Source: Tequatrovirus BCH953P4. Taken from it: a DNA stretch of 64,000 nt. The stretch lies in the sequence record OZ035789.1; one strand, 5' to 3'. A program made the position numbers and the translations under genes. Positions 70 to 16,684 of this stretch are shown here, one piece after another. Numbering within the stretch: position 1 is the stretch's first letter; each line of letters opens with the position of its first letter. The notes below the pieces were generated by a model. That model had not been told where the DNA came from and searched no databases. It saw only the letters and a list, made by a program, of their open reading frames with translations.

Positions 70-1251
70 TTACTCATTAAATTCTTCCATATCACTTAAC
101 TGCTCGAGGTCAGTTTCTAAATCAGCAGCTGATTTACTTTTACTTTCTGGAGATTTAAATTTTTCAACCTTTGAGTTAATCAATTCATCAACTTCCGCTT
201 CAACAATTTCATTACTATCAATAGCACCTAACTGATAAGCACGTTTAATAGCATCTCGGAATGGTTGATGCTTAAATAAAGGACCCCAGAATGTAGTGCA
301 GTTGGTATCTTTTGCACGCCAAGATTTTTCTTCGCGAATCATCTCACCGGTTTCTTCATCAAGAAATTCACGGGCATACCAGCCATTTTTAGGTTTTACT
401 ACAAATCCTAATTCTAGAGCCATATCTAACAATCCAGAATAAGGATCGATACCACCGTCAAATTTAACATCAATAAAGAATTTACTTTTTTCTTTAACGG
501 TACGAGATTTTTCTACATTTAGAACAAATTGATACCCCTGAAGATCAGAACCATCTTTAATTTGACGTTTACCGATAATGAATACAGTATCAGCCGAATA
601 CATTACGCCTGTACCGCCTGTCATCACGGTTTTACTAAACATTTCAATTGTTTCAATTGTATGGTTAACCGCAACGCACGGAATATTTTTAATGCTAAAA
701 TAAGGAGTAACAATACGGAATAATGACTTCAGTGATTTAGCACGAGTCATATCTGCCACAGATTTTTCATTCAAGGCATCTTCCGTTTCTTTCTTAGAAG
801 CCATATTACCGATTGAGTCGATGAATACAATAACCTTTTCACCACGCTCAATAGTTTCAAGCTGATTCACCATATCAATTTTCAGCTGTTCAACTGATTG
901 GATTGGCGTATGAATTACTCGTTCCGGGTCAACTCCCATGGATCGCAAATAAGCTGGAGTAATACCAAATTCGCTATCATAGAATAGACAAACCGCATCA
1001 GGATATTTGTTCAAATACGCCGCAACCATAGTCAAAGACATATTTGATTTAAAGTGTTTAGAAGGCCCTGCGAAAATAGTTAAACCAGACTGCATACCAC
1101 CATCAATCGCGCCAGAAATAGCAATATTAAGCATTGGGATTTTTGTACGGATTACATCCTTTTCATTAAAGAATTTAGATGTAGTCAGTTCAGCAGTCAT
1201 TTTAGAAGTGGAAGCTTTAATCAAACGGGATTTTAAATCTGCAATAGACAT
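70..1251 (-). CDS. uvsX: UvsX RecA-like recombinase
   Basis: 393 aa; RecA-fold ATPase core; near-identical in length and recalled sequence to T4 UvsX; position next to the beta-gt locus and gene 42. Confidence 0.93.
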   Translation of the reverse strand: MSIADLKSRLIKASTSKMTAELTTSKFFNEKDVIRTKIPMLNIAISGAIDGGMQSGLTIFAGPSKHFKSNMSLTMVAAYLNKYPDAVCLFYDSEFGITPAYLRSMGVDPERVIHTPIQSVEQLKIDMVNQLETIERGEKVIVFIDSIGNMASKKETEDALNEKSVADMTRAKSLKSLFRIVTPYFSIKNIPCVAVNHTIETIEMFSKTVMTGGTGVMYSADTVFIIGKRQIKDGSDLQGYQFVLNVEKSRTVKEKSKFFIDVKFDGGIDPYSGLLDMALELGFVVKPKNGWYAREFLDEETGEMIREEKSWRAKDTNCTTFWGPLFKHQPFRDAIKRAYQLGAIDSNEIVEAEVDELINSKVEKFKSPESKSKSAADLETDLEQLSDMEEFNE

Positions 1252-1328
1252 TCATTTTTTCCATAGGCATCATTATATTTTCCTCACTGGTTAAAGATAG
1301 AGTAATTATAACACAATAAATTTAGGCA

Positions 1329-2171
1329 TTAATCAACTGCTATTGGATGAATAGCATTAAACTTATGAAATGCTTCTGATTTTTCTTTACGCGAAACGCA
1401 CATGCGAAGAACCTTTAGTGGTTCATCTTCTTCACCCAACGATTTTCGTTTTTCAATATTAGAAGTTTTCCAACGAGCTTGCTCTGGAAACTCTCTATTG
1501 ATTTGCTCAAGCGCTCTATTATGTTTAGAATTACTACGAATTGAACTGCACCCGCCAGGAGCTTGTGCTTTTCCAGATACAACCAGATATTTGAACAAGG
1601 CCAAATGCGGATAACCTTGATTAATTAAATTGAGAAATGCATACATATCTTCGCATAAATCAATTTTTCCATATCCAATTTGTTCTGTCGTAAGTTTTCC
1701 AAGGTCATACCATGTATTCGTGAATCCATATGAATTTTCACGATAATTACCCCAAGATGAAGTAATTTTAAAAATTGGTAGACGAGCATGGCCATGATAA
1801 TACCCGCAATCCATGGCATCTTCAACATATTGAATCAATTCATAGAACTGTTCACGAGTTAATTGATTAATTTTATCTACACAACGACGATCATCTCTTT
1901 TTCGCATTGAACTCATACGAATAGTAGTATCATCGTCAATCATCCAGATTCGTTGACCTGCATACATATCAGTAATTGCTTTACGAGTACCGGCAATTCC
2001 GTTTACATCATCAGGAATAGTTATAATTTTAGCTCTAGACCCATAGGCATCATAATAAGCTTTTTCTTCATGTTCACGCACTACAATATGGGGTTCATAA
2101 TCAGTCGGAAACATATCAAGGGCAGAAACTGCCCCGACACGCTGATAGCTCGGAATTACGAATTGAATCAT
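1329..2171 (-). CDS. GT-A fold glycosyltransferase with DxD motif (WMIDDDTTI) at the T4 beta-gt locus; not T4 beta-gt; possibly the T2/T6-type beta-glucosyl-HMC-alpha-glucosyltransferase
   Basis: 280 aa ORF between uvsX and gene 42; DxD motif; T4 beta-gt is about 351 aa with a different N-terminus (recalled). Confidence 0.7.
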   Translation of the reverse strand: MIQFVIPSYQRVGAVSALDMFPTDYEPHIVVREHEEKAYYDAYGSRAKIITIPDDVNGIAGTRKAITDMYAGQRIWMIDDDTTIRMSSMRKRDDRRCVDKINQLTREQFYELIQYVEDAMDCGYYHGHARLPIFKITSSWGNYRENSYGFTNTWYDLGKLTTEQIGYGKIDLCEDMYAFLNLINQGYPHLALFKYLVVSGKAQAPGGCSSIRSNSKHNRALEQINREFPEQARWKTSNIEKRKSLGEEDEPLKVLRMCVSRKEKSEAFHKFNAIHPIAVD

Positions 2172-2809
2172 TTAAGTGCCTTACATTTATCAAAATGGTA
2201 TCTTGTCATATTTGGCCCACGTCCTTTTAGTCCGCAATGCGGACATATTTTTTCTATCAAATTATGAGGTTTTCCTTTACGATTTTTAGACATCGTTTCT
2301 TTAATTATTTTAGCTTTTTCTACGCCAAAAATTTCTTCATAAGTTTTACCAGAATTTTCCTTGGCTCGATTTATAATTCCATATGCCTGCTCATTTTTAC
2401 CATACATTGGATTACCTTCGCCTTTCATTCTTTTAGAATGATCAGGACGCTTGATTCCACGAAAGGCATTTCCGCACTTATATCTTTCTTCTGGAGATAG
2501 TTTTTTACCGTACATTCCATTTAATTTGCCTGGAAAACTTCCTCCCCATGCTTCATTCTTTAAATTATATGAATCCGGACAATTAGCAGCATCTAAACAA
2601 GTTAAAATAATTTCTTCAACCTGTCTAAACATTGGTCCTTCATATAATATTTCTTTATTAAAGGATTTTATTCCATATTTCTTTTTAACATGTTGCCAAA
2701 CTACACCCGAACCATCATAATTCGGGTTGTGACCATCATGACTTCCTATATACCACTTTTTAGTTTTAGGATGTTTATACTTATAAACATGCGGCACATT
2801 TACTTCCAT
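2168..2809 (-). mobile_element. free-standing GIY-YIG homing endonuclease (Seg-like) with C-terminal zinc-finger-like module
   Basis: 213 aa; N-terminal VYKY...KWYIGSHDG GIY-YIG-like motif; C-terminal CPHCG...GPNMTRYHFDKC module; inserted between gene 42 and the glycosyltransferase. Confidence 0.65.
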
Positions 2810-3540
2810 TTTCCAGTATAATCCTTTTTAGCAATATGAGTCTCACCGGTGTTCCACCAATGGTCAACTAAATAAAACTGATTTTCGTACACATGAAGAC
2901 TTCCAACGTTCCATATAATAGAACCTGCTTTATATTGCCGCGATGGGTCGCCTGCATTCAAATCAGATACTAATTTATCTAGTACGTATTTTTGCCAAGC
3001 ATAATCATTACGATAGCCTGCCCAGCAATCATTGCTTCTCATGCTAACAACCGCATTGACTTTCTTATCACGAATCAGGTACTGTACTGTATTAGTACAC
3101 ATGAAATCTGACATACCATCTTTATTGTAATCAAATTGCATGGATGGACGAGTATAAATCATGATACCACGTCGAGAATCAGGATTTTGACCAAGTTCAG
3201 CTAAACACATATCATACTGGGCATAGTTATCTTCTGACCAAATAGCCCAACCATAATTCGAGTTAATTTCGCCTTTAGAAGATGCTACTTGTTGCCAAAT
3301 CTTCGGTGTTTCACCCGGAATATCTTTAACAAACAAACTCTTAGATTTATACCATTCAAGTTCACGCTGAATGTATTCATCATTAAGAGCGCCAAAAATA
3401 AACGGTTCATCTGCTACAAATGATGCGCCAATAATTTCAATAGTTTTAACACCAGTTTTATCAACTACGAAATCTTTTTCCTTTAATGCAGTTCCCAAAT
3501 AAAAACGGATTTCTTCAACTGTCATAGAGTCATTAATCAT
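2800..3540 (-). CDS. 42: dCMP hydroxymethylase (thymidylate synthase fold)
   Basis: 246 aa, same length as T4 gp42; conserved position upstream of the glycosyltransferase and uvsX. Confidence 0.88.
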   Translation of the reverse strand: MINDSMTVEEIRFYLGTALKEKDFVVDKTGVKTIEIIGASFVADEPFIFGALNDEYIQRELEWYKSKSLFVKDIPGETPKIWQQVASSKGEINSNYGWAIWSEDNYAQYDMCLAELGQNPDSRRGIMIYTRPSMQFDYNKDGMSDFMCTNTVQYLIRDKKVNAVVSMRSNDCWAGYRNDYAWQKYVLDKLVSDLNAGDPSRQYKAGSIIWNVGSLHVYENQFYLVDHWWNTGETHIAKKDYTGKWK

Positions 3541-3693
3541 TTAAACCTCAATTGATGCATTCATATTTAAATTGTAACAGTAATAAACCCCACCCTATGA
3601 TAAGAGTTGGAATCATAGCAGGAACTGTTACGCTATAGTATATACTTATTATAACCATCAAGATTAAAAGCAACACTGCTATAATTTTGCTTT

Positions 3694-3945
3694 TCATTCT
3701 TTCTCTCTGATGATAATTACCTGATTTGGCTGTGCAGACTTTTTAGTTTCACCAGCAATTGACCAAATAAATGTAATAAACCAACCAATAATTGACCAGT
3801 TAAACAGTAAAGATGTGAAAAAGATTCCTACTGTCGATTTTGACCCACGCATCAAGGCGATAAACCATGGAAGCATGTATATAATAATAGCCAACACGCC
3901 TGAAACTAAAACCATAAAAATTGAACCTGCTACTAAAGTTTCCAT
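3694..3945 (-). CDS. imm: Imm superinfection immunity membrane protein
   Basis: 83 aa, two hydrophobic helices; T4 imm is 83 aa and lies between 43 and 42. Confidence 0.8.
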   Translation of the reverse strand: METLVAGSIFMVLVSGVLAIIIYMLPWFIALMRGSKSTVGIFFTSLLFNWSIIGWFITFIWSIAGETKKSAQPNQVIIIREKE

Positions 3946-4514: not shown

Positions 4515-7211
4515 TCAGCCAAACAGGAAGTCTAACGAAGCTTTTTCTTCATAGTCCATACCAGCCGATTCACACATACCCGCAAGCGGTTTAACAAACG
4601 ATTTTTGGAACAAAGTTGAGTAGTCAATCCAAGATAGTACATCAGAACGAATTTCTTTTGGAAGTTCTGTACCCGACGGCCAAGCAATGCACTTGTCGCC
4701 AAATGGATTTCCTTCACGTAATGGAAGAACCATTACCTTATTTCCATCCAAAATTGGAGCTACACCTAGACCGCTAACAGCTCGACGATAAGTTAGCACA
4801 CCACGAATATGGAACGGGCATTTAAATCCTGGCCAACCTTTATCATCATATTTCGCTATATCGTTCGCAGTTTTTACTTCAGCAATAACTTTATAGTCAA
4901 GTTGACGATATTCTTTCTCGAAGTTTTTGTAATATTCTTGGACAGACTCTTCACCTTCCTGAAGAATACGACGAATACTTTCTTCGAGAGCTTCTTGCAC
5001 TGCTTTTGGTGTTGAACTCTGCTGAGTTTCCATACCCATGATTTTTAGATGTGGTTCAGCAAATCGCTTATCTTCCATATCATAAACGTTCAGAGCATAA
5101 CGCTTTTTCGCTTTCCAAAATCCACCAACGCCCTTTGAACCAAGTGGAGGGCAAGAAATAGCTTCACGGTCCATATGCATCAGATGCTCGCGGTTATTCA
5201 TATAATCACATAACTCGCGATATGCAACATCAATCATAGGTTCCATCTTTTTCTTACCGAACTGATTCATGAATTCAACTAAATCGTTCTGCTCTTTGAA
5301 TCGGTCAAGACCTACTTTTTCAATAACTTTATCTACGCAAACATATACCGAATCAGTATCACCTGCTGCAATGAAATCTTCGCCATTAGTTCCGCATACT
5401 TTATTCAGATATTCATTAATTTTACGAGCAATCCACTGAATACCAACTTGGCCGAAAATTGTGATAGCAGTAGCATTTCGCAAATCATAGTAACGGAAAT
5501 GAATATTACCAAGAGCACCATAAAGACTGTTAATAAGAATTTTACGGTTCAGCTGATTTGTGTTAGCAAGTGTAGCTGCTTTTTCACATTCTTCGATCAG
5601 ACTATTAAGAACAGATTCAGTGTAATTCGATAATTCATTTAAGAAATCATCACTGAACTTAACATATCGTTCAACTTCTGGTTTAGTTGAACAAGACCCT
5701 GCGCCTTTCATAATAATCTTTTTAATAGCTTCGGCATTCATTTCTTCAGCGAACATTTTCTTTTTCCAGTCTTTACGCTGGAAAAATACTTTAGCGATTT
5801 CCTTTGGAATGATACCTTCTTGATGCTTATCATACATCCATCCATTCGGAGAACAAGAATATTCATCACTCGGTTTAGGAGCTGTTCCTGCAATATATTC
5901 ATGAATTGGATGAACTTTAAACTGCCCACGAATAGTCTCAGGACTAATGTTAACCTGACGAATAATGCTAGGATACAGAGACGTCAAGTCAAAACTCATA
6001 ATATATCGACGAGCAATTGGTTTAGGTTCAAACACAAATGCACCCGGAAAACTTTGTTTAACGTGCGAACCCTGTTGAGGAATAACCTTATGTTCACCTT
6101 TCAATGAGTTAAAAATAATAGCATCCCAAGTTTTAATAGGACTCATTACGCCAGAAAAAGGCATTTTAGCATAATAAGACATACTTAAAACTAGATCGAT
6201 AAACCCGCGAATTTTATCAATTGCTTGAACTGATTCTACGTCAATGATGTTATAACTAATGTATCGTTGATGATTAGTTTCACGAAGTTTATTAATAGGA
6301 CCGTCGTATGGTAATTTACCTTTTTTGGTTTCATGTTGAGCAACTGATTCCAAAGAGAATGACGGCAAATTAGTAAAAGCGAATTTCTTGTACAAATCTA
6401 AATAATCAAGAATAGATACACCATCAATAGAATAAATTTCTTTGCTACCGTACATATTTTGAATTAGTTTAGATTTTACTCGACCGATTGGAGAGAAGCG
6501 TTTCATACTACGTTCACCGAGAACCATTTTAACACGATTCATGATATACGGAACGTCAAATCCCTCAATATTCCAACCAGTAAAAATAGCAGGTCGTTTC
6601 TGTTCCCAAAGATTGATATATTCCATGAGCATATCACGCTCGTTATCGAATGGCATATAAATTACTCGGTCAAGAATTTCTTGAGGAACTTCATCACCAC
6701 CTTCACAGTCAAGCTTAGCAGCTAACTTTGCATCCCATTTTGATACTGAACCGTACATTGAATTCAAAAGGTCGAAAACATAAAAACGATCGTCAATTGA
6801 ATCGTAATGAGTGATAGCATCAATTTCATATTCAGCTTTCATTGGGTCAGGAAATTTATCACCAGTAACCTCAATGTCACAGTTAGCTACGCGAACAAAT
6901 TTTCGGTCATAAACAATTTCTGAACCATATGTATCACTAATGTAAGCGAGTTTAAAATCGTTCATACCGAGAGCTTCGAGACCGATGTCTTCCATTCGCT
7001 TCATCCAGTCTCGTGCATCTTTCATTGATGGAAATTTTTGAGGAGCGCAATTTTTACCATAGATGTCTTTGTACTTTGACTCTTCCTTACAATGCCTAAA
7101 CATAGTCGGAAGATATTCTACTTCACGGGTACGTTCCTTTCCGTTTTCATCAATATAACGTTCAACAATGTTATTTCCGACTGTTTCGATAGAGATATAA
7201 AATTCTTTCAT
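4515..7211 (-). CDS. 43: DNA polymerase (family B) with 3'-5' exonuclease
   Basis: 898 aa, same length as T4 gp43; polymerase motifs including YGDTDS. Confidence 0.95.
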   Translation of the reverse strand: MKEFYISIETVGNNIVERYIDENGKERTREVEYLPTMFRHCKEESKYKDIYGKNCAPQKFPSMKDARDWMKRMEDIGLEALGMNDFKLAYISDTYGSEIVYDRKFVRVANCDIEVTGDKFPDPMKAEYEIDAITHYDSIDDRFYVFDLLNSMYGSVSKWDAKLAAKLDCEGGDEVPQEILDRVIYMPFDNERDMLMEYINLWEQKRPAIFTGWNIEGFDVPYIMNRVKMVLGERSMKRFSPIGRVKSKLIQNMYGSKEIYSIDGVSILDYLDLYKKFAFTNLPSFSLESVAQHETKKGKLPYDGPINKLRETNHQRYISYNIIDVESVQAIDKIRGFIDLVLSMSYYAKMPFSGVMSPIKTWDAIIFNSLKGEHKVIPQQGSHVKQSFPGAFVFEPKPIARRYIMSFDLTSLYPSIIRQVNISPETIRGQFKVHPIHEYIAGTAPKPSDEYSCSPNGWMYDKHQEGIIPKEIAKVFFQRKDWKKKMFAEEMNAEAIKKIIMKGAGSCSTKPEVERYVKFSDDFLNELSNYTESVLNSLIEECEKAATLANTNQLNRKILINSLYGALGNIHFRYYDLRNATAITIFGQVGIQWIARKINEYLNKVCGTNGEDFIAAGDTDSVYVCVDKVIEKVGLDRFKEQNDLVEFMNQFGKKKMEPMIDVAYRELCDYMNNREHLMHMDREAISCPPLGSKGVGGFWKAKKRYALNVYDMEDKRFAEPHLKIMGMETQQSSTPKAVQEALEESIRRILQEGEESVQEYYKNFEKEYRQLDYKVIAEVKTANDIAKYDDKGWPGFKCPFHIRGVLTYRRAVSGLGVAPILDGNKVMVLPLREGNPFGDKCIAWPSGTELPKEIRSDVLSWIDYSTLFQKSFVKPLAGMCESAGMDYEEKASLDFLFG

Positions 7212-7248
7212 AGATATTCCTTAGTTTATAGCCCGAGTTATTAGGCTC
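7212..7248 (-). promoter_or_regulatory. gp43 translational operator: hairpin GAGCC-UAAUAACU-CGGGCU next to the gene 43 Shine-Dalgarno
   Basis: minus strand reads GAGCCUAAUAACUCGGGCUAUAAACUAAGGAAUAUCUAUG, matching the recalled T4 gp43 autogenous operator. Confidence 0.65.
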
Positions 7249-7270
7249 TTGATATATTATACTCCAAATA

Positions 7271-7286
7271 AGGGGCCGAAGCCCCT
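7271..7286 (-). terminator. GC-rich hairpin, UUCG tetraloop on transcribed strand (AGGGGC-UUCG-GCCCCU), downstream of regA
   Basis: perfect 6-bp stem with 4-nt loop between the regA stop and the gene 43 start. Confidence 0.6.
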
Positions 7287-7289
7287 TGC

Positions 7290-7658
7290 TTAATTACCAA
7301 TCGTATATTTAGGAACGAGTTTCCATTCATGTTTTTGTTTAAAAGAAATAACTCGGAAGTTATTAGTTAAATCTTTCATAAAAGTTCTTTGACCAGGGAC
7401 GATTTCAATCAGTCCCCAATCTTCTAATAGCCATGCAATCGAATCACGACGAACTTCATCTTCTTCTGTCATTTCAACTTGGCGACCATCCATACGAAGC
7501 ATTTCTTTAAAATGAACGATATAGTATAGTCCTTTTTTCTGAAGAATATGACAGGACTGATACAGAACTTTATCTTTATTATTAGCAATTCCCATACGAG
7601 TCAAAGTTTCTTTTACTTTCAGAAAATCTTCAGGTTTTTTAAGAGTAATTTCAATCAT
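7290..7658 (-). CDS. regA: RegA translational repressor
   Basis: 122 aa as in T4; position between 62 and 43. Confidence 0.88.
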   Translation of the reverse strand: MIEITLKKPEDFLKVKETLTRMGIANNKDKVLYQSCHILQKKGLYYIVHFKEMLRMDGRQVEMTEEDEVRRDSIAWLLEDWGLIEIVPGQRTFMKDLTNNFRVISFKQKHEWKLVPKYTIGN

Positions 7659-7659
7659 T

Positions 7660-8223
7660 TTACCATTCCAATGCTAGTTTTTTGAGTTGTTTCTGTTCTT
7701 TTACGTTCTTAGTCACTTCTTTCAAAAAATCATCCGTGACTAATCCTTTTAGTTCTTTTAATACTAAAGGTAGTTTTCCATTTTTAGTAAGAATTGATTT
7801 ATAGTTAATTGCATCATTTGTATTAACTTGATACCGCTTAGCAAGTAACTTAATAATCAATACTTCGGTGGAATCTTCAACCAGTTTTGCCCATTTACCA
7901 TATCTTTTACCACGAGGAACTGCAGCCATTAGATAATTAAAATGAGCTTCATCACTTAAACCTGATCCAATTAAATTCATAGCATATACAGCTGGCATGC
8001 ACTCCGGAAATTGTGATAATGCATTTTCAACCATGAATTTTGAATAATCTTTTTGAGCAATAGAGCATTTAGTTTTATTATTAATAGCTCCAATTATTTC
8101 AAAAAATTCATTTTCAGCTTTTTCTTTAAAAGAATCAGCAGCAGATTGGACAGCTGTCCAATCTTTTGAATACCAAGCAACTTGATGCTCGTTTAATTGA
8201 ATATCATCTTCAAATAAGCTCAT
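7660..8223 (-). CDS. 62: clamp loader small subunit
   Basis: 187 aa from the internal Met MSLFEDD (ORF track extends 7 codons upstream); start overlaps the gene 44 stop. Confidence 0.85.
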
Positions 8224-15465: not shown

Positions 15466-15484
15466 AAAGGGCCGAAGCCCTTTA
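15466..15484 (-). terminator. hairpin AAAGGGC-UUCG-GCCCUUU at the alpha-gt stop
   Basis: 7-bp stem, 4-nt loop. Confidence 0.55.
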
Positions 15485-16684
15485 TTTTGTAATAATGTCA
15501 AACTGTTCTTTAAAGCAGAAGCTTGAATCTTGATGCTGATACAAAAATTCATATGCTTTTTCTCGCTCACGGTCATAAAGAGCTCGGTCAGATGACAGTT
15601 CTTTAATACGCTCGAATGTTGATTCCATGTCATTTTCATCAAACCAAACGATACCGCTATCATGCGAGGTCAAAGGAGTATTATCAACACGGAATTTTAA
15701 ATTTTCGCCAGTAGATTTCCAAAATACCGGAATTGTTCCACATGCACCAAGCTCGAGGTGAGTATATTCTAAAGAGCGCTGTAGATATTTTTTATCCAAC
15801 TTACTCAACTGATAACCAAATCCGGATTTACTCATACGTTCAAGCATTTCGCTATTTACATAACGATCGAGAATTTGCGTTGGTAAATTAGGAGCAATTT
15901 TAATTTGGTCTACTTGATGAAGACGATAATACTCGTATGGAATTCCTTTTTCTTTAATAGGAATGAACGCTGGAGAACGTTCCAGACCTTCCATAATAGT
16001 ACTTAGTCCTGCAGGTTTAAGATGTTTTTCGTGAAAATCAAACATCTGATAAAAACCTTTCCATGTAGTCGTACGACCAATCCAACGGTTGATATTCATG
16101 TTAATTTCAGAAACATCTTTCCAGTAGGTTGATCGAACCTTCGCAATATCCATAGGAGGCTGAAAGTTGTATACGGTCGGTGCTTCTTCAATATCATCAA
16201 ACAGAGAAACTGTTTCTGGATACCATTCTTTCATCAGAACTTTATTAAAATCACCATTATCAGAATGGCTAAAAATAACATCAGCTCGACGAACAGTTTC
16301 TTCTAATCCCAAATTTCGACGCAAAGAAAGAGAAGAATGGTCATGTTGATAAACTACAACACGAACCGAAGGTTTAATGTTATCAATAATTTTTTTATAG
16401 TTATTAATAGTGTCTTCTTCAACTGAAGTAGCAGGAACGGAATTGATAATTAGAATATCACAATCATTTACCAGCTTAAGTGTTTTATCGTATTCTTTTG
16501 CCAATAAAACCGGAATTGAAAATGATTTATAATCATGCGCGCAATTACGGGTAAATGATTTATCTTTAGCATAAACCAAAGTTACTTCATGACCATTTTT
16601 AATAAACCAATCACGCTGCTCAAGAGAAAATTTAGTTACACCGCAACCTTCAAGACCCCGAGCCATAAAAATGCAAATACGCAT
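15482..16684 (-). CDS. a-gt: alpha-glucosyltransferase (DNA hydroxymethylcytosine alpha-glucosylation)
   Basis: 400 aa from MRICIFMARGLEGCGVTKF, matching the recalled T4 AGT N-terminus and length; ORF track extends 7 codons upstream. Confidence 0.85.
   Translation of the reverse strand: MRICIFMARGLEGCGVTKFSLEQRDWFIKNGHEVTLVYAKDKSFTRNCAHDYKSFSIPVLLAKEYDKTLKLVNDCDILIINSVPATSVEEDTINNYKKIIDNIKPSVRVVVYQHDHSSLSLRRNLGLEETVRRADVIFSHSDNGDFNKVLMKEWYPETVSLFDDIEEAPTVYNFQPPMDIAKVRSTYWKDVSEINMNINRWIGRTTTWKGFYQMFDFHEKHLKPAGLSTIMEGLERSPAFIPIKEKGIPYEYYRLHQVDQIKIAPNLPTQILDRYVNSEMLERMSKSGFGYQLSKLDKKYLQRSLEYTHLELGACGTIPVFWKSTGENLKFRVDNTPLTSHDSGIVWFDENDMESTFERIKELSSDRALYDREREKAYEFLYQHQDSSFCFKEQFDIITK

Follow-up and report, generated by a model that had tools for sequence, protein, structure and literature searches.

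A 280-aa gene between 42 and uvsX of Tequatrovirus BCH953P4 very probably encodes a T2/T6-type beta-glucosyl-HMC-alpha-glucosyltransferase

The DNA modification pathway of the T-even phages, which runs through gp42, alpha-gt and ba-gt, has been restated in PMC6024577, PMC13216743 and bioRxiv 10.64898/2026.02.25.707755. The alpha-glucosyl and gentiobiosyl forms were reported at about 70% and 5% in T2 and at about 3% and 72% in T6, bare hmC making up about 25% in either phage; deletion of g-gt from T6 gave about 75% alpha-glucosyl-hmC (bioRxiv 10.64898/2026.02.25.707755). Ten wild Tequatroviruses encode alpha-GT together with TAGT, the latter syntenic with the T4 beta-GT, and HPLC-MS of these ten showed hmdC, alpha-glucosyl-mdC and alpha-gentiobiosyl-mdC, while the beta-glucosyl form was not found (PMC13390438). 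Among 753 glycosyltransferase-encoding phage genomes, the vast majority carried either alpha-GT or beta-GT together with TAGT, and the alpha-GT and beta-GT pair of T4 was present in 6 only (PMC13216743). Departure from T4 is therefore usual, with T4 itself as the exceptional case.

We examined the corresponding locus in a 64-kb window, which is the whole stretch of phage DNA that was analysed (64,000 nucleotides). The following genes were identified:

70..1251, minus strand: uvsX, the landmark on the downstream flank of ba-gt (Pfam T4_UVSX_C, E=5e-39, and RecA)
1329..2171, minus strand: ba-gt (also g-gt or TAGT), beta-glucosyl-HMC-alpha-glucosyltransferase, 280 aa, assigned very probably from its ORF, PHROG 842, Pfam PF20691 and near-identity to T2, T6, RB14 and RB3
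2168..2809, minus strand: Seg-like GIY-YIG homing endonuclease gene, 213 aa, outside the modification pathway (PHROG 314, E=8e-30; a weak NUMOD3 match; 32% identity to T4 SegA, E=2e-8)
2800..3540, minus strand: gene 42, dCMP hydroxymethylase, source of the hmC that is later glucosylated (Pfam Thymidylat_synt, E=1e-14; synteny with gene 42 of T4, T2, T6 and RB14)
15482..16684, minus strand: alpha-gt, 400 aa, T2-type allele, predicted to make the alpha-glucosyl-hmC acceptor for ba-gt (395/400, or 99%, identical to T2, 92% to T4 and 91% to T6)

The ba-gt ORF starts with ATG and lies in the slot between uvsX and gene 42, where it replaces the T4 beta-gt; in T4 the same slot holds beta-gt and segA. 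The order 43, imm.1, imm, 42.1, 42, ba-gt, uvsX, 40, 41 was shared by the window, RB14, T2 and T6. A preliminary description had called ba-gt the gene between 42 and uvsX. Its location was correct, but it is not the sole gene there, since the 213-aa endonuclease ORF is also present.

The product matched PHROG 842 (beta-glucosyl-HMC-alpha-glucosyltransferase) over residues 1-275 with E=7e-89. It also matched Pfam PF20691 (TET-associated glycosyltransferase, TAGT) with 38.3 bits and E=1.8e-9, above the gathering threshold of 27.5 bits, with residues 3-207 aligned to positions 2-205 of the 205-position profile. Megablast of the 843 bases returned 473 phage records, all of them full-length and with at least 90% nucleotide identity, so that the ORF is a real conserved gene and not a chance reading frame. 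Named annotations among the 473 were beta-glucosyl-HMC-alpha-glucosyltransferase or beta-alpha-glucosyltransferase, for example in RB14, wV7 and the BASEL phages. The tblastn search extended the count to 687 phage records with a protein homolog, which included Klebsiella and Enterobacter phage homologs at about 64-66% identity.

Alignment to the T2 and T6 beta-alpha-gt proteins, which the preliminary description had proposed as a check, showed full-length orthology. The ba-gt protein was identical to T2 (LC348380) at 277/280 residues, and the second T2 record (AP018813) holds the same T2 protein. Identity to the two T6 records was 257/261 and 275/280 (98%), to RB14 279/280, to the phage CP enzyme 278/280, and to RB3 complete (280/280). 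The T2 and RB3 enzymes share the length of 280 aa and the position between 42 and uvsX, and T2 also has a partner alpha-gt that is 99% identical to that of the window. T2 differs from the window in having H11, V101 and S251 in place of R11, I101 and P251, and in having no endonuclease gene between 42 and ba-gt. The RB69 paper gives the T2 enzyme as UniProt Q06717. The T6 enzyme (ggt or g-gt) belongs to the same family, occupies the same locus and is 98% identical, but it carries the four substitutions Y40N, D55G, I101V and R106H.

The second gene of the pathway was also of the T2 type. The conserved alpha-gt that had been noted earlier at 15482..16684 was found there as a 400-aa gene with 92% identity to the T4 protein. 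It matched T2 at 395/400 positions but differed from the T4 and T6 proteins at 33-36 positions, and the phage therefore holds a T2-type gene pair; the T6 alpha-gt is a T4-type allele with 36/400 differences from that of the window. Across these phages we observed two alpha-gt allele types about 33-36 of 400 residues apart, one in the window, T2 and CP and the other in T4, T6 and EL. Within the 64-kb window, ba-gt co-occurred with alpha-gt and without beta-gt. The RB69 paper tabulates the same pair in the majority of RB phages, with alpha-gt at 91% to T4 and ba-gt at 98-99% to T2 (PMC6024577).

The shared genomic position is the one point in favour of a highly diverged T4-type beta-glucosyltransferase, with a GT-B fold, that still makes beta-monoglucosyl-hmC. 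BLASTP of the gene product against the 351-aa T4 protein (NC_000866) gave a best E of 3.4, and there was no match to Pfam PF09198. The tblastn search with T4 beta-gt over the whole 64-kb window gave no match at E<=10, and the same setup with T4 alpha-gt recovered 15485..16684 at 92%. The sequence comparison and the fold (GT-A as opposed to GT-B) refute this reading, to which we assign no probability, and the earlier statement that the gene is distinct from T4 beta-gt was borne out. T4 beta-gt (PF09198, GT-B) and ba-gt share the slot between 42 and uvsX, the use of UDP-glucose and the formation of a beta linkage on the hmC-containing DNA of the phage; their sequences and folds are unrelated, and the acceptor of the T4 enzyme is bare hmC instead of alpha-glucosyl-hmC.

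The GT-A assignment and the motifs were characterized by alignment and structure modelling. Two motifs were located in the product:

1929..1937, minus strand: DDD (D79-D81), the DxD metal- and UDP-sugar-binding motif, read directly
2139..2156, minus strand: IPSYQR, residues 6-11, N-terminal, from conservation in the alignment and the model

The DDD lies inside WMIDDDTTI, which had been reported earlier for the 280-aa product and was read at residues 76-84 (1920..1946). In the alignment of nine homologs, reaching down to 32% identity, D79, D80 and D81 were all invariant, as were I6, P7, S8, Y9 and R11. IPSYQR appears to resemble the nucleotide-binding 'IPxYN' motif with which the GT-A fold of GT2 enzymes begins. 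A single-sequence AlphaFold2 model (pLDDT 39.9) was unusable and was discarded, and the model used here was built from the 9-sequence alignment. In this model, which is of moderate confidence overall and has pLDDT below 50 at residues 130-140, 192-212 and 241-252, the DDD is predicted to follow the strand at E74-77 and IPSYQR to lie on the first strand. Both the GT-A (nucleotide-diphospho-sugar transferase) fold and a conserved DxD were recognized in the product. No PDB entry reached E<0.1 for ba-gt, and the family has no solved structure. Other PF20691 TAGTs share with ba-gt the full-length profile match, the conserved DDD, the N-terminal IPSY and the GT-A fold. The window differs from them in having no TET/JBP dioxygenase context, and the acceptor of its ba-gt would be a glucose that is already carried by hmC of gene 42 origin, as opposed to 5hmC from 5mC oxidation for the TET-associated TAGTs.

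In the proposed pathway, gp42 would make hm-dCMP, with hmC replacing cytosine in the phage DNA, and alpha-gt would move glucose from UDP-glucose onto hmC in an alpha linkage. The DxD-dependent GT-A enzyme ba-gt would then attach a second glucose to the one already in place, in beta-1,6 linkage, so that gentiobiosyl-hmC is formed. Published LC-MS and genetics, taken together with the close match to the enzymes of T2, T6 and CP, point to this transfer from UDP-glucose to alpha-glucosyl-hmC. Since UDP-alpha-glucose would yield a beta product and the fold is of the kind seen in inverting GT2 enzymes, an inverting, metal-dependent DxD mechanism would be expected. The DNA would be expected to contain unglucosylated hmC, alpha-glucosyl-hmC and gentiobiosyl-hmC, without beta-monoglucosyl-hmC, and the chemistry of the LC-MS-characterised Tequatroviruses with alpha-GT and TAGT probably holds for the window phage too.

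A glycosyltransferase of the same family could also have another specificity, in its sugar donor, its linkage or direct action on hmC, and so give a modification unlike that of T2 or T6. The sequence does not reveal the sugar donor, and PF20691 is a diverse family in which solitary TAGT homologs, encoded without alpha-GT or beta-GT, may have other activities (PMC13216743). However, only 3/280 residues separate the window protein from the biochemically defined T2 enzyme, and that of RB3 is identical. The window protein also matches the enzyme of CP at 278/280, and CP DNA is gentiobiosyl-rich by LC-MS (PMC13390438). The preliminary description had also put forward RB69 arabinosyltransferase sequences for alignment. 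There was no similarity to ORF003c of RB69, which the RB69 paper treats as a candidate arabinosyltransferase: BLASTP against ba-gt gave E=1.1, and tblastn of ORF003c over the window found nothing better than E=0.14, in unrelated places. We regard another specificity as extremely improbable.

The gentiobiosyl-hmC of T2 and T6 had been offered earlier as one example of a pattern unlike T4, and the match of ba-gt at 277/280 to T2 and 98% to T6, with a T2-type alpha-gt, argues for it. We hold it close to certain that 1329..2171 encodes a beta-glucosyl-HMC-alpha-glucosyltransferase of the T2/T6 type and that alpha-gt followed by ba-gt would give gentiobiosyl-hmC and no beta-monoglucosyl-hmC. The identification is based on orthology and synteny, on the partner alpha-gt and the lack of a beta-gt in the 64-kb window, and on the fold class and the conserved motifs; the chemistry would be that published for T2, T6 and the LC-MS-characterised relatives.

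The endonuclease ORF at 2168..2809 overlaps both of its neighbours, gene 42 and ba-gt. It was absent from the 42/ba-gt site in T2, T6 and RB14, but 76 phage records had it there, with 95-100% identity. An intact ba-gt might be poorly expressed or silent if this insertion disturbed the operon, which would leave essentially alpha-monoglucosylated DNA. The 642-bp insertion does part ba-gt from gene 42, the two being translationally coupled in T2 and RB14, and laboratory T6 stocks show that loss of ba-gt is non-lethal. However, the TGA of the endonuclease gene overlaps the ATG of ba-gt as ATGA, which restores a start/stop overlap upstream of ba-gt. The same arrangement occurs with an intact ba-gt in the 76 phage records, and the protein sequence is unchanged from that of RB3. 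On the coding (minus) strand of 1200..3700 no convincing terminator was found between the genes; the sole terminator-like match on that strand was weak and lay inside ba-gt (2135..2119). Over the same region, counting all matches, there were 4 terminator-like sites against a shuffle mean of 1.1, and promoter-like sites were no commoner than in shuffles (12 vs 12.0). Silencing of ba-gt is accordingly judged very unlikely, and we retain a functional T2/T6-type enzyme as the reading of this locus.

The gentiobiosyl share of hmC varies among T-even phages, with reported values of about 5% in T2, about 40% in EL, BGP and Geo, and about 70% in T6 and CP. The alpha-gt allele was rejected as a predictor of this fraction, for T2 and CP have one type and opposite patterns, and T6 and EL have the other type and also differ. 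CP was used as the LC-MS-characterised comparator in place of NR1, whose record is circularly permuted and whose retrieved stretch lacked the locus. CP combined a T2-type alpha-gt (3 differences) with an R11/P251 ba-gt. R11 (window 2139..2141) and P251 were present in the ba-gt of the window, T6, RB14, EL and CP, and R11, one of the residues invariant in the nine homologs, adjoins the N-terminal IPSY. Both T2 records (LC348380, locus 7295..8137; AP018813, locus 2283..3125) had H11 and S251. As a lead only, and a tentative one, minor differences between ba-gt alleles, and not the type of alpha-gt, may determine the gentiobiosyl fraction. The T2 ba-gt with R11H might be a hypomorph, which could account for the roughly 5% of T2 against the roughly 70% of T6 and CP.

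The T6 records showed changes of another kind. In MH550421 (locus 7138..7980) codon 10 of ba-gt is TAG (amber), and the gene is annotated from Met20. In AP018814 (locus 2135..2974) one Asp of the invariant DDD is lost in frame, at a GAT-GAT-GAT run; the window has GAC-GAT-GAT at this place. As read from these records, the two public T6 genomes probably carry different loss-of-function lesions in ba-gt, both without a counterpart in the window. These lesions suggest that T6 laboratory stocks lose ba-gt function, or else that the level of 72% gentiobiosyl-hmC is no longer reached in the stocks that were sequenced.

The gene has been published previously, as have its location, its family, its fold and the DNA chemistry to which it leads, and nothing here is new. 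The value of the result is that of a routine annotation: the DNA of this phage should carry alpha-glucosyl- and gentiobiosyl-hmC, not the alpha/beta mixture of T4. If R11H makes the T2 enzyme hypomorphic, the window allele (R11 and P251, identical to RB3) would give a gentiobiosyl-rich genome like those of T6 and CP despite the T2-type alpha-gt. Brig1 has been reported to be specific for alpha-glucosylated cytosine, and GmrSD is directed against the gentiobiosyl form as well as the two glucosyl stereoisomers (PMC13216743). Such DNA chemistry affects the sensitivity of a phage to linkage-specific defences of this kind.
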